From Sphingomonadaceae bacterium (GTDB lineage Bacteria; Chloroflexota; UBA6077), in contig JBLNDL010000005.1 of assembly GCA_050261575.1 (NCBI GenBank), positions 62,001-126,000 on the forward strand: a DNA stretch of 64,000 nt. The letters run 5' to 3'. A program made the position numbers. Positions within the stretch are counted from its first letter, which is position 1. Each line of letters opens with the position of its first letter. Of this stretch, positions 1-64,000 are shown one piece after another.

Positions 1-3000
1 CGCGCCCAGAACTCACGAGCGGGGCTTGCCGTTCGGTGCCGGGCTCCGGCCTCTGACCCCCGCCGCGAGGTAGATGAATCGTGAATCGTGTACCCACCCC
101 CACCTGGCTCTCGACCTCGATTCCTCCACCCAATCGCGACACCTCGTGTGCCACCAGGGAGAGGCCGATACCCTTGCTGCCAGGCTTCGTGGTGAAGCCT
201 CGCTCGAAGATCCGCTGCCGATTCTCCTCTTCGATACCGAGCCCCGTATCCTCCACCTCGATCAGCATCTCCTGCTCGTCGGCATAGAGGGAGAGCCAGA
301 CGTTTCGCCTATCTTCCGGCAGTGTCGATACGGCGTCGAAGGCGTTCTCCAGCAGGTTCCCCACGACCGTGGTCAGATCCGCCCGGCGGGAGCGATGGTC
401 GTGAACCGGCACGTCGCTGTCGGGATCCAGGTTGAGGGTGATCCCCCGCTCGTTCGCCGCGCTGATCTTGCCCAGCACCAGCCCGGCCAGAGCTGGTTCC
501 CGAATCCGGCGGGTCACAAACCCCACCATCTCTTCGTGTGTGCGGGTGGCGGTAGCGATGTACTCTATCGCATCGTCGTATCGCGCGAGCTGCAGGAGGC
601 CAGAGACGGTGTGCAGCCGGTTGATGAACTCGTGGGCCTGCGCTCGAAGCGCATTGGCGAGCTGGGTCACGCCAGTCAGCTCGGCCGCCAGCTCCCTCAT
701 CTCGCTCATATCCCTGAAGGTGGCCACGGCGCCCACCACCTTGCCGTCGACCACGATAGGCACCCGGTTGGTGAGGATCACACGCCCCTGCAGCACCTGC
801 TCCTGATCGAACTCCGGCCGCCCGGTCTCCACGATCTCCGGCAAGCGAGAGTTGGGCAACGCCTCGACGACGGGTCTGCCGATAGCCTCCTGCCCCACCC
901 CCGTCAGCCGCTCCGCCTCCGTGTTGAGCAGGGTAATCCTGCTCTTCTTGTCCACCGCGATCACCCCTTCTCGGATGCTCTGCAGGATGGCCACCCTTTC
1001 CTCCAGTATCGAGGCGATCTGGGAAGGCTCCAGGCCGAAGATGCTGGTCTTAATGTTGTACGCAACCGCGGCGGCCCCCAGCGCACCCACCCCCAGCCCG
1101 AAGAGGGCGAAGCCCGCCAACTCAAGCAGCGAATCCCTCACCTGCTGCGTCAGATGCGACATCCACACGCCAGCCACGACGACGCCCACCTGCTTCCCAT
1201 CGTCGTCGTACACCGGCACGAATGCCCTGAGGGACGGCCCCGAGATCCCCGTGGCCATGGATACATACTCCTCTCCCTCCAGGGACGGCCCCTCGTCCCC
1301 ACCCGTGAAGTGCTGGCCCACCAGATCGGGATTGGGATGCGAGTAGCGGATGGTATCCATGTTGAACACGACGATGAGGTCCAGGCCGGTTTGCTCCAGC
1401 CAGCGCTGGGTGAGCGGTTGCAGCACCTCGGCGGGGTTCTCGAGGCTGAACGCCTCTCGCACCTCCGGCCTCTCCGCCAGGAGTCTCCCCACCCCCAGCA
1501 CCCGGTCGCCGGCTAGGCTCTCCTTCTGGCGCGTGAGCGCTTGGCTAGCGAAGTAGGCAGTCACCAGCCCCGCGAACAGCAGGACCGCGAGCACCAACGC
1601 CGTCAGCTTCCACTGCAGCGGCAGAGCCGGGATCGCCCGGCGCATCGTTTCGGTTCGATATCCGTGGCCATCTACTACGGCAGACGTAGCGCTTCCTCCA
1701 GTAGGGGTGGTGGTGTGCCCGAGTTTACCGTTGGCCCGGTAACCTGTCAAACTGCGCTCACGTCCAACCCCAGACCTGTGGTCGATTCCCCTCGTTTTTC
1801 CCCACTCTCTGTGGATAACCAGCCGTTTCCTGTGGAAAACCCACTCGCGTTGTGGATAACACGCCCACTCATCCACACCCTCCAGGCCCGGCGGACACCC
1901 ACTCGCACAGCCTCACCGGCCACCCTCTCCGCCTCACACAACCTTTCCACACCCCTTCCCAGCCTTGCCCACACCGGCTCACGCACGCCGCACGCACGGT
2001 ATCCCCATTTCCACGTCCCCTACTATGACTCCTATTGAATCTACTCCCTAAGACAGAGTCTGTTGAACGATTGTGGGAGTACCCGCTATATTGGGCACAT
2101 CTCTTGCGCGCCGGTCCTGAAGCCGCGGAAAGGGTTACGCTGTTGTTCATCGACGAGGCCACAATTCACGTCGAGGGTGGAGACGGAGGCGATGGAGCCG
2201 TCAGCTTCCGCAGAGAGAAGTTCATTCCACGTGGTGGGCCCGACGGGGGTGACGGTGGTCGGGGTGGCAGTGTCTACCTCGAGGCGACGGAGGACCTGAA
2301 CACCCTGTACGCCTTTCGTCACCAGAAGCGCTTCAAGGCCGAACGAGGAGGAAACGGCGCTGGTGCCCGAAAACATGGAGCGAAGGGAAAAGACCTGATC
2401 ATACCCGTCCCCGTTGGTACGGTAGCCTACGACGAGGAAGGGACTGTCATGGCCGACCTTGCCGAGCCGCGACAGCGGGAAATGGTGGCACGCGGTGGGC
2501 GGGGCGGGCTGGGGAACGTCCACTTCTCCACTCCGGTGATGCAGACCCCCCGGATAGCGCAGAAGGGGGAGCCGGGGGAGAAGCGGTGGCTTAGGCTGGA
2601 GTTGCGATTGCTGGCCGACGTCGGGTTGGTGGGGCTGCCCAACGCCGGCAAGTCCACCCTGCTGTCCAGGATCACCGCAGCGCGGCCCAAGATTGCCGAC
2701 TACCCTTTCACCACGTTGGTGCCGAATCTGGGGGTGGTGGAGGTGGATGACACCACCTTCGTCGTGGCGGACATACCCGGGCTGATCGAGGGCGCGCACC
2801 AAGGCGCCGGACTCGGGCTGGAGTTTCTGCGCCACATCCGGCGGACGCGGCTGCTGGTTCACCTGGTGGACGGATCGTCTGCGGACCCGATAAGGGATTT
2901 CGAGGTTGTGAACCGCGAACTCGAAGAGTACGACCCCGAGCTGGCCAAGAAGCCCCAGATCGTTGCTATCAACAAGATGGACCTCCCGGATGCACGGGAG

Positions 3001-63000: not shown

Positions 63001-64000
63001 GCTTCCGGCGGGGGCCTATGCCCGGCACCTCGTCCAGGGCCGACCCGAGGGTGCGCTTGCTGCGCACGTTGCGATGGTAGGTGATGGCGAATCGGTGGGC
63101 CTCGTCCCGGATGCGTTGCACCAGGTAGAGGGCCTGCGAGGTCCGGGGGAGCATCATCCCCTGGGAGACCCCGGGCTGGAAGATCTCCTCGTTCTCCTTG
63201 GCCAGCCCCACGACGGGCAGGTTGGCCAGGCCCAGGTCGTCCAGCACCTCCAGGGCGGCGTTCAACTGCCCCTTGCCGCCGTCCACGATCACCAGGTCCG
63301 GTAGCACGGCCCAGGAGGAGGGTTCTGAGTTCTGAGTCCTGGGTCCTGAGTCCAGGGTGTCGGGGTCCTCACCCCGTGGGCCGGCCAAAGGGCCGGTCCA
63401 CGCCTCTCCTGGAGGGAAAGTGGAATCGATGCTCCCCGCGCCCCCGGCTCTCCGAGTCTCCGCGTCCTCACTCTCCCCGCCTCCGACGCTAACGGCTGAT
63501 AGCTGGCCACTGACCGCTCGCTTGAAGCGCCGCCGCAGCACCTCCTGCATCATGGCGAAGTCGTTGGCCCCCTCCACCGTCTTGATCTTGAAGCGGCGGT
63601 AGTCGGAGCTCTTCGCCTGCCCCCCCTCGAACACCACCATGCTCCCCACCGCCGAGGTGCCCTGGATGTTGGAGATGTCGTAGCACTCTATCCGGTGGGG
63701 CGTGGCCGGTAGCTGCAGCGCGTCGCGCAACTCCAGCAGGGCGCCGGTGGTCCGCTGGGTGTCGTTCAGCCAGCGAAGCTTGAGCATCTCCAACTGCTGG
63801 ACGGCGTTCTCCAACGCCAGCTTCACCAGTTGGGCTTTCTGACCTCGCTTGGGCACCGCCAGACGCACGCGGCTGCCGCGCCGCTCGGTGAGCCACTCGC
63901 CGAGCGTCTCGGCGTCGTCGATCTCCTCCTGAATCAGGATCTGAGGGGGCACGTAGGCCGCGGAGTCGTAGAACTGCTGCAGGAATGAGGCGAGCACGGG

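Follow-up and report, generated by a model that had tools for sequence, protein, structure and literature searches.

TAG is the commonest stop codon of the Chloroflexota genome under study, and its excess over TGA is no artefact: the bias in stop choice is genuine, runs through the whole genome and its lineage, and operates under the standard bacterial code without recoding. The genome, referred to here as G000, comprises 103 contigs and 3,721,602 bases with a G+C content of 65.4%. Genes were called with a codon log-odds model that scores open reading frames, and overlaps were resolved greedily. Unless labelled otherwise, stop-codon splits are given in the order TAG/TGA/TAA. Across the whole genome, 2707 genes were called with this model, and they end in TAG in 1281 cases (47.3%), in TGA in 1129 (41.7%) and in TAA in 297 (11.0%). 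These values agree with those of the survey's finding, in which TAG had been named the commonest stop at 46.7/42.4/10.8%. The same order was observed in the 1156 genes with scores of at least 80 (562/461/133), in the 2652 genes of a self-trained second version of the caller (1249/1110/293), and in 568 open reading frames of at least 600 residues taken from stop to stop (TAG 264, TGA 246, TAA 58). The difference between 1281 and 1129 corresponds to a z value of ~3.1 against equality, and the excess is far larger against the trinucleotide background of the genome, for which the earlier figures of 61.5% TGA, 30.8% TAG and 7.7% TAA were reproduced exactly. TAA is held at 11% by strong G+C pressure, the GC3 value being 84%.

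The window, namely the stretch of 64,000 nucleotides that was analysed in detail, provides a sample of this trait. The relevant features are as follows.

1..64000, entire window: 49 called genes, of which 22 end in TAG, 21 in TGA and 6 in TAA
2035..3405, plus strand: obg GTPase with a Pfam match, TGA stop
7431..8792, plus strand: Nramp transporter with a Pfam match, TAA stop
10955..11785, minus strand: parB, TAG stop, with ParB_C reaching residue 273 of 276
18080..18964, plus strand: branched-chain amino-acid permease, TGA stop, overlapping by 4 nucleotides the next called gene, which starts at 18961
22710..23255, minus strand: greA-like elongation factor, TAG stop, with PF01272 at residues 111-181 of 181
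44085..44399, plus strand: HU-type DNA-binding protein, TAG stop, PF00216 with an E value of 1.2e-31
55795..56934, minus strand: dnaN, DNA polymerase III beta subunit, TAG stop at 55795-55797, with three Pfam beta-clamp domains

The last beta-clamp domain of dnaN extends to residue 375 of 379, and in the greA-like gene the TAG marks the true C-terminus since PF01272 runs to the final residue. The gene for the HU-type protein is likely to be highly expressed.

Stop-codon statistics depend upon correct gene calls, and in this genome the antisense strand is treacherous. Indeed, the 2765 shadow open reading frames of at least 100 residues that lie antisense within called genes end in TAG in 56.5% of cases, and thus an artefact had to be excluded. 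The check on GC phase excludes it: the sense-strand order GC3>GC1>GC2 holds for 2671 of the 2707 called genes, and these split 47.3/41.7/11.0. The broader suggestion that shadow frames were miscalled, or that the bin is a mixture of two organisms, is extremely improbable and has been largely refuted. A contamination estimate of 4.76% and the presence of three tRNA-Trp genes could be taken to indicate a mixed bin, but the stop split is homogeneous across the 24 contigs with at least 40 genes (chi-square p=0.80). Likewise, the 43 of 49 window genes with a Pfam match (E<=1e-5) split 20/18/5 by a hand tally. When applied to 50 kb of Escherichia coli K-12, the caller placed 38 of 38 3' ends at annotated positions and recovered 38 of the 48 annotated ends. 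On 200 kb of the Ralstonia pseudosolanacearum megaplasmid (NC_003296, 68% G+C, without usable annotation) it called 96 genes, with TAG in 15, TGA in 67 and TAA in 14. Both controls behaved as expected, and the split from the earlier, independent caller agrees. Bias of the caller is excluded by these controls. Note the caution for annotation: TAG-rich antisense shadow frames can distort stop statistics, which consequently require strand-checked gene calls.

The termination machinery, which the survey had left aside, proved to be ordinary, with prfA, prfB and PrmC all present. RF1 is encoded by prfA at C39:13209-14249 (an equivalog match to TIGR00019 at 522.3 bits, cut-off 423); its translation displays the PAT and GGQ motifs, and PrmC adjoins it. 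RF2 is encoded by prfB at C11:96391-97419 (TIGR00020, 512.8 bits, cut-off 370), whose translation displays the SPF and GGQ motifs and whose reading frame contains one internal TGA. No match to RF3 above the cut-off was observed in G000. The frameshift site of prfB reads ...GGTGCGT CTT TGA CCT... (L003, ~1515-1521), the classic CTT-TGA-C arrangement, and CTT TGA C is also found in the seven other Chloroflexota prfB genes checked. In all eight sequences the CTT is preceded, at a distance of a few bases, by GGTG or GGAG, a candidate Shine-Dalgarno-like element. A TAA at the frameshift site, apparently present once in four of the eight genes, was rejected, given that all eight sites read CTT TGA C; the apparent TAA belongs to the +1 frame upstream of the site and is an artefact of match extension. 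For comparison, part of a bioRxiv preprint (10.1101/2024.09.24.614795) places TAA in 1.4% of prfB frameshift motifs.

The tRNA complement leads to the same picture. Among the 51 tRNAs identified in G000 with ARAGORN there is no CUA or UUA anticodon and hence no suppressor tRNA of that type. The UCA anticodon occurs only in tRNA-Sec, which is accompanied by selB; neither a tRNA-Trp nor a tRNA-Gly carries it, and the three tRNA-Trp genes, all distinct, have the anticodon CCA. The codes in which UGA is reassigned (tables 4 and 25) do not describe a genome that has kept prfB and ends 1129 of its 2707 genes in TGA. With RF1, RF2, all three stops in use and no suppressor tRNA, G000 employs the standard genetic code (table 11) and its release factors are ordinary. 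It is a TAG-rich outlier within that code, one in which TAG is commonest genome-wide and both release factors are retained.

At true termination sites TAG is preferred over TGA, its equal in G+C content, beyond what the nearby DNA predicts. In the comparison that carries this point, 1161 true stops were TAG and 1034 were TGA, whereas the next in-frame stop on the 3' side (n=1846) was TAG in 32.7% and TGA in 56.4% of cases, corresponding to an odds ratio of 1.94 (p ~3e-23). Expressed as TAG/(TAG+TGA), the values for G000 fall from 0.53 at true stops to 0.43 in short intergenic DNA, 0.37 at next in-frame stops and 0.33 in the whole genome. This gradient bears directly upon a neutral account, according to which a mutational or k-mer bias of the lineage lifts TAG over TGA everywhere and stops simply follow without selection. 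The intergenic value of 0.43 does exceed the 0.21-0.30 of the low-TAG relatives G025, G005 and G037, and across 26 related genomes the TAG share of stops is correlated with that of intergenic DNA (rho 0.47, p 0.015), so that part of the effect can be attributed to background composition. Similarly, in the sections of Ho and Hurst (PMC9348620) that address the matter, 3' non-coding DNA shows the same trends as canonical stops across species. As a complete explanation, however, the neutral account is rather unlikely. True stops exceed next in-frame stops not only in G000 but in 25 of 27 other samples, the exceptions being G027 and G002, and the TAG excess is larger at higher codon bias. Moreover, the observed/expected ratio for CTAG is unrelated to the TAG share of stops (rho 0.11). 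The avoidance of CTAG was thus rejected as a driver of differences between genomes; within genomes it still affects stop choice, and in G000 the stop is TAG for 60% of genes whose last sense codon ends in G and for 31% of those in which it ends in C.

The preference for TAG rises with codon bias, employed here as a proxy for expression. TAG increases from 42.4% in the lowest quintile to 53.0% in the highest, and TGA falls over the same range from 45.9% to 35.3% (z=4.4 for the trend, p=9e-6); the top 5% of genes split 53.5/29.8/16.7. Genes of low codon bias may be foreign DNA with other stop habits, a consideration that counts against selection as the cause of the trend. A majority of TGA is confined to genes that overlap the next gene. 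Among the 248 codirectional overlapping genes TGA reaches 74.2%, whereas in all other classes combined TAG accounts for 1075 of 2133 stops (50.4%, a hand sum). These TGA codons may belong to ATGA or GTGA junctions, a reading for which stops by overlap and the base at position -1 were counted separately. An in-frame stop that could serve as a back-up lies within six codons downstream in 15.9% of genes ending in TGA versus 11.1% of those ending in TAG, figures confounded by overlapping genes; the corresponding controls for TGA and TAG are 11.5/12.2 in the +1 frame and 14.3/13.8 in the +2 frame. Overlap of the stop with a Shine-Dalgarno core, observed after 16.5% of TAG and 18.0% of TGA codons, explains nothing.

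The bias extends to the relatives of G000. In the family, where it had earlier been suggested from very small samples, TAG outnumbers TGA in the enlarged sets for G001 (126/71/42, n=239), G004 (48/47/10, n=105) and G003 (27/24/22, n=73); G002, at 4/11/4, contributes 19 genes, too few to read. Among family orthologues, 60 of 85 TAG stops, 48 of 81 TGA stops and 8 of 21 TAA stops are kept, and the difference between TAG and TGA is not significant (p=0.17), the orthologue pairs not being independent. The phylum draw covered 15 of 27 families, and the samples of other genomes are small, at 47-239 genes each, called by the same in-house caller. Across 26 Chloroflexota samples other than G000, the TAG share has a median of 37%; TAG exceeds TGA in 11 and reaches at least 30% in 19, a result unchanged by the GC-phase filter. 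TAG-rich stop usage is thus common across the Chloroflexota and not special to G000. A genome that departs from the trend is useful only when its departure is genuine and inherited and can be compared with near relatives that follow the trend. The break is real in G000 and common to much of its phylum, and neighboring lineages vary from 15% to 56% TAG at similar G+C content.

The explanation that we regard as probable combines a real bias with selection against UGA or with co-adaptation of RF1 and RF2, the mechanism itself being a proposal. UGA is the leakiest of the three stops. Read only by RF2, it would be selected against, and the synthesis of RF2 would itself be restrained by the UGA frameshift in prfB. 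With UAA disfavored under G+C pressure, the share would then fall to UAG, which RF1 reads. The levels of the two release factors and stop usage may be co-adapted, with causation running in either direction, and the raised TAG share in the non-coding DNA of the lineage would supply part of the effect. As a proxy for release-factor levels, the codon-bias percentiles of prfA and prfB are 89.5 and 66.5, respectively. The idea of adaptation between codon and decoder is found in Wei, Wang and Xia 2016 (PMC4989110), passages of which report that highly expressed genes avoid UGA in all 14 species studied and suggest that species in which UAG exceeds UGA may simply have a more active RF1. Two published statements argue against the explanation. 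According to the fit in those same passages, UAG exceeds UGA only at high A+T, the opposite of G000, and Ho and Hurst, in the sections concerned, regard the abundance of release factors as following stop usage rather than driving it (PMC9348620).

A different possibility is that UGA is weakening as a stop through ambiguous reading, by either selenocysteine insertion or extra near-cognate tRNA-Trp, and that genes drift away from it. The tRNA-Sec(UCA), selB and the three tRNA-Trp(CCA) genes of G000 are in keeping with such a process. So are the Eggerthellaceae, for which passages of a recent paper (PMC13462651) give code-11 means of 44.6% UAG, 34.9% UAA and 20.5% UGA, describe multiple tRNA-Trp copies in 14 species, and propose that selenocysteine insertion competed with RF2 before UGA was reassigned to tryptophan. 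For G000, this process is nevertheless very unlikely: 42% of genes still end in TGA, an intact prfB retains its autoregulatory TGA, and no tRNA-Trp(UCA) is present. In addition, 27 of the order's 31 genomes carry selB, among them the low-TAG G005 (29%) and G025 (25%). Among 15 samples from the class and phylum, TAG/(TAG+TGA) averages 0.49 in the ten that have selB and 0.43 in the five that lack it, and the two lowest values both belong to selB-positive genomes. As selB is found in both the lowest- and highest-TAG samples of the phylum, no clear association with selenocysteine was observed and that link was rejected. Also discarded was the notion that an odd tRNA-Trp in the window is a trait of the lineage, as a search of 30 relatives gave no match over its full length.

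In its broadest form, the argument would hold that the Chloroflexota, and most strongly the family of G000, are a clade in which selection has reversed the preference for TGA over TAG, by RF1-dominant termination or a leaky UGA helped by selenocysteine and extra tRNA-Trp, and that exceptions to the TAG paradox cluster by lineage. The published TAG-rich exceptions presumably fall, for most accessions, into the Chloroflexota, Coriobacteriia, Deinococcota and others. We consider this broad form quite unlikely. If true, TAG-rich lineages would be natural experiments on the TAG paradox and possibly early stages toward UGA reassignment.

In the relevant passages of PMC9348620, bacterial TAG usage is given as ~20% and flat with G+C content, and its flatness while TGA rises is called unresolved. 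The survey had stated that G000 runs against this rule. Its numbers were right and do oppose the central tendency, but what was called a rule is a tendency from which many genomes depart: by an eye count of the 644-genome supplement to that paper (Ho and Hurst 2022), TAG is commonest in ~34 genomes. Of these, 22 exceed 60% G+C and 10 have TAG at or above 46.7%. The question raised at the outset, as to whether other Chloroflexi behave alike and already stand in public tables, is answered affirmatively by the phylum samples and by CP001823, which is listed in the supplement at 68% G+C with 44.7% TAG, 41.0% TGA and 14.3% TAA. The same supplement lists CP001275 with 13.5% TAG. According to the listing in its genome paper, CP001823 is chromosome 1 of Sphaerobacter thermophilus, of the phylum Chloroflexi, and the organism is not singled out in sections 4 and 5 of PMC9348620. 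A literature search combining stop codon usage with Chloroflexi yielded no paper on the pattern among titles, the beginnings of abstracts and passages of PMC2784483, although per-genome stop tables in published supplements may bear on its novelty; one combining TAG stop, Coriobacteri and release factor yielded nothing relevant. G000 is a quantitative outlier of a kind already in public data, and by itself the finding does not amount to a new mechanism.

Five systems serve for comparison. The Ralstonia pseudosolanacearum megaplasmid shares with G000 the standard code, a similar G+C content and the same avoidance of CTAG before the stop, but at 69.8% TGA and 15.6% TAG it shows the usual high-G+C pattern. 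The most extreme entry in the 644-genome table, Olsenella uli (CP002106), is TAG-dominant at a high G+C content (64.5%), as is G000; it belongs to another phylum and its bias is much stronger (TAG 68.7%, TGA 21.4%). The code-11 Eggerthellaceae (Actinomycetota) resemble G000, on the partial account cited above, in having UAG as the commonest stop, selenocysteine and, in some members, several tRNA-Trp(CCA) genes, yet some of them have lost prfB and read UGA as tryptophan, whereas G000 retains 42% TGA and an intact prfB. 'Thermobaculum terrenum' (CP001825), another entry of that table and placed within the Chloroflexi in the pertinent part of its genome paper, also has TAG as its commonest stop (47.2%), but at 49% G+C, with 38.8% TAA and 14.0% TGA, it lies in another regime of G+C pressure. 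Sphaerobacter thermophilus, a high-G+C member of the Chloroflexi, has a stop split nearly identical to that of G000; it differs in belonging, by the same listing, to the class Thermomicrobia, in being a cultured thermophile, and in a TAG share slightly below that of G000. We take CP001275 to be Thermomicrobium roseum. The difference between this accession and Sphaerobacter in TAG share offers a tractable contrast for release-factor ratios and read-through.

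The genome under study belongs to Chloroflexota and is assembled into 103 contigs totaling 3.72 Mb at 65.4% G+C, with a completeness estimate of 100% and a contamination estimate of 4.76%. The window spans positions 62001-126000 of contig C5. Its RF1 is closest to that of 'Chloroflexi bacterium UBA6077' (79% identity), followed by those of Thermomicrobiales, Anaerolineae and Ardenticatenaceae, and it is these matches that place the genome in the phylum. Genes were called with our own program, in which a codon log-odds model, refined over successive rounds of training on the genome, scores open reading frames of at least 60 residues, with overlaps resolved greedily. 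The 2707 genes so obtained end in TAG in 1281 cases (47.3%), in TGA in 1129 (41.7%) and in TAA in 297 (11.0%). This split is steady over score cut-offs (562/461/133, in the same order, for the 1156 genes scoring at least 80), and similar values were provided by a second, self-starting caller (1249/1110/293, n=2652) and by stop-to-stop frames of at least 600 residues (264/246/58, n=568). The survey's finding that TAG is the commonest stop is thus confirmed, and the trinucleotide background that accompanied it was recomputed as TAG 30.8, TGA 61.5 and TAA 7.7%. The 49 genes called in the window divide as 22/21/6.

Genomes of high G+C content contain long antisense 'shadow' frames. Here 2765 of these, at least 100 residues long, lie within called genes, and 56.5% of them end in TAG, since antisense stops arise mainly opposite CTA codons, which are rare. 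Miscalls would therefore push the TAG share up, an excess that can mislead counts of stop codons at high G+C. An artefact of this kind is, in our judgment, very improbable. The sense-strand phase GC3>GC1>GC2 is observed in 2671 of the 2707 calls, whose stops divide as 47.3/41.7/11.0%, and the mean G+C of the called genes is 0.84, 0.66 and 0.46 at the third, first and second codon positions, respectively. A Pfam match (E<=1e-5) was found for 43 of the 49 window calls, which split 20/18/5 by hand tally, and in several (GreA, DnaN, ParB) the match reaches the final residues. Tested against 50 kb of E. coli K-12, the caller placed each of its 38 3' ends at an annotated end and recovered 38 of the 48 annotated ends. 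A 200 kb stretch of a Ralstonia megaplasmid (68% G+C) showed the usual pattern of 15 TAG, 67 TGA and 14 TAA (n=96). The survey's own caller, independent of ours, agrees. The 24 contigs with at least 40 genes are homogeneous in their stops (chi-square p=0.80; TAG exceeds TGA in 14), and thus a mixed bin is not the cause of the TAG excess.

A comparison of true stops (TAG 1161 vs TGA 1034) with the stop reached next downstream in the same frame (n=1846; TAG 32.7%, TGA 56.4%) gives an odds ratio of 1.94 (p ~3e-23). The TAG enrichment is specific to true stops. As a fraction of TAG+TGA, TAG falls from 0.53 at stops to 0.43 in short intergenic DNA and 0.33 genome-wide; for next in-frame stops the second caller gives 0.37. 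Pure composition, to which the intermediate intergenic value would lend some weight, is on these ratios an unlikely explanation, albeit the least unlikely of the alternatives. With rising codon-bias quintile the TAG share runs 42.4, 41.7, 45.9, 50.3 and 53.0% and the TGA share 45.9, 48.1, 44.2, 37.3 and 35.3% (z=4.4, p=9e-6), and the top 5% of genes reach 53.5/29.8/16.7% for TAG/TGA/TAA. The bias is real, site-specific and graded with codon bias.

It is also constrained by gene overlaps and by CTAG avoidance. Codirectional overlaps are the only neighbor class with a TGA majority (184/248, 74.2%); the remaining neighbor classes pooled, as summed by hand, give TAG in 1075 of 2133 (50.4%). When the last sense codon ends in G, TAG accounts for 60.2% of stops and TGA for 28.3%; when it ends in C, the values are 31.1 and 55.4%. 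This effect of the preceding base, also seen in the Ralstonia control, fits a general avoidance of CTAG, for which observed/expected is 0.47. No motif was found downstream of the stops, and TAG and TGA stops overlap a Shine-Dalgarno core equally often. Among orthologues with alignable C-termini in four family relatives, the stop is kept in 60 of 85 cases for TAG, 48 of 81 for TGA and 8 of 21 for TAA; the difference between TAG and TGA is not significant (p=0.17).

The release factors, which the survey had left aside, were both located. RF1 (the prfA product) scores 522 bits and RF2 (the prfB product) 513 bits. The latter carries a single internal TGA, in the context CGT CTT TGA CCT, which is the classic +1 frameshift site. 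Both genes end in TAA, their codon-bias percentiles are 89.5 (prfA) and 66.5 (prfB), and the gene for the release-factor methyltransferase PrmC adjoins prfA. No RF3 (prfC) match in the whole genome exceeds the curated cut-off; the best, at 142 bits vs 467, looks like another translational GTPase. Among the 51 tRNAs identified with ARAGORN, the anticodons CUA and UUA are absent and UCA occurs only in tRNA-Sec. The selenocysteine genes are:

C12:15331-15428, tRNA-Sec(UCA)
C14:97101-98204, selB

From the two release factors and the tRNA set it follows that the bias operates under the standard code, with selenocysteine the only recoding of UGA. An incipient ambiguity of UGA, to which that recoding might seem to point, is accordingly quite improbable. 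Among 46 genomes drawn from 27 families of the phylum (one of them the unpublished G056), prfB is frameshifted in eight and in-frame in the rest, and selB is present in 32. The site reads CTT TGA C in all eight; a TAA inside prfB, flagged in four genes, proved on this reading to be an artefact. Within the order, selB also occurs in 27 of 31 genomes, and selenocysteine use thus looks general there. No clear relation between selB and TAG share was seen in the order or in the phylum draw.

The window itself contains two neighboring tRNA genes (Rfam tRNA, 66 and 58 bits):

41814-41887, minus strand, tRNA-Lys(UUU)
41908-41980, minus strand, tRNA-Trp(CCA)

The genome has three distinct tRNA-Trp(CCA) genes (contigs C5, C56 and C78) and four for tRNA-Lys, two UUU and two CUU. 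Full-length matches to the window tRNA-Trp were absent from 30 relatives, where similarity was limited to matches of 84-87% spanning the anticodon and T arms, and the flanking frames, 40267-40791 (minus) and 40742-41698 (plus), have no Pfam match. The pair may be mobile-element cargo or a bin artefact. Genes usual near replication origins also lie on the minus strand of the window, at 10955-15186 and 54465-56934: parB, parA, jag and yidC, then recF and dnaN. A DnaA-family Pfam match was found neither among the 49 called genes nor beside dnaN, and a coarse GC-skew profile displayed no switch.

We suggest that selection against UGA at termination sites, combined with G+C pressure against UAA, would leave UAG to gain. 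Release-factor levels may have co-adapted with stop usage, with causation running in either direction, and the elevated TAG share of the lineage's non-coding DNA would add a part.

The bias is common across the lineage. In samples of 64-307 kb per genome, the family relatives gave 126/71/42 (G001, n=239), 48/47/10 (G004, n=105), 27/24/22 (G003, n=73) and 4/11/4 (G002, n=19, too few genes to interpret). TAG is the commonest stop in G001, G003 and, by a single gene, G004, as the survey had suggested for the family. The TAG share is 25-45% elsewhere in the order (eight genomes, six families) and 15-56% in 15 genomes of further families in the class and phylum, where stop sampling of the phylum draw covers 15 of its 27 families. 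Pooling 26 genomes, with the genome under study excluded and G002 dropped for n<40, gives a median of 37% and counts of 726/806/385; TAG exceeds TGA in 11, is the commonest stop in nine and is at least 30% in 19. After GC-phase filtering, 23 genomes with at least 40 genes remain (median 38%, TAG>TGA in nine). Note that these genomes are kin, sampled lightly and with our own gene calls, such that the counts describe the sample and test no hypothesis.

Povolotskaya et al. (2012) regard TAG as globally suboptimal (PMC3549826), and Ho and Hurst (2022) describe a TAG share near 20%, flat with G+C, as the TAG paradox (PMC9348620). All 644 rows of the bacterial sheet in the latter's supplement were taken in and counted by eye, possibly with an error of one or two. 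TAG leads the other two stops in ~34 genomes, 22 of which have a mean G+C above 60%, and reaches at least 46.7% in ten. The survey's finding therefore stands as a bias and only partly as an exception to the rule. Rows with TAA <20%, TAG>TGA and G+C >60% are as follows.

Rows resembling the genome under study (PMC9348620 supplement)
CP001823, TAG 44.7%, TGA 41.0%
CP000386, TAG 44.2%, TGA 43.6%
CP000927, TAG 44.1%, TGA 39.8%
CP001818, TAG 42.2%, TGA 41.2%
FP565814, TAG 49.3%, TGA 34.4%
CP002106, TAG 68.7%, TGA 21.4%

According to their genome papers, CP001823 is Sphaerobacter thermophilus and CP001825 (TAG 47.2%) 'Thermobaculum terrenum', both placed in Chloroflexi, CP002106 is Olsenella uli and CP002049 (TAG 51.0%) is Truepera radiovictrix. 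Whether other Chloroflexi do the same, and already stand in public tables, had been left open; on the first two of these accessions, they do. The seven accessions below are presumably Chloroflexi as well.

TAG share in further rows (PMC9348620 supplement)
CP001364, 33.4%
CP000875, 27.0%
CP000686, 26.1%
AP012337, 23.7%
CP002084, 21.8%
AP012029, 17.6%
CP001275, 13.5%

Our literature search found no description of a TAG-rich pattern for Chloroflexi as a group. Code-11 Eggerthellaceae average UAG 44.6, UAA 34.9 and UGA 20.5%, and competition between selenocysteine insertion and RF2 is proposed to reduce UGA use there (PMC13462651, 2026). Wei, Wang and Xia (2016) attribute UAG>UGA in a species simply to a more active RF1; their fit expects that order only for A+T-rich genomes, and highly expressed genes avoid UGA in 14 of 14 species (PMC4989110). 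According to a preprint, TGA use tends to be high where the prfB frameshift has been lost (10.1101/2024.09.24.614795). The genome described here joins an already known type of outlier, to which this analysis adds a phylum-wide picture and evidence, from within one genome, that selection acts at stop sites.
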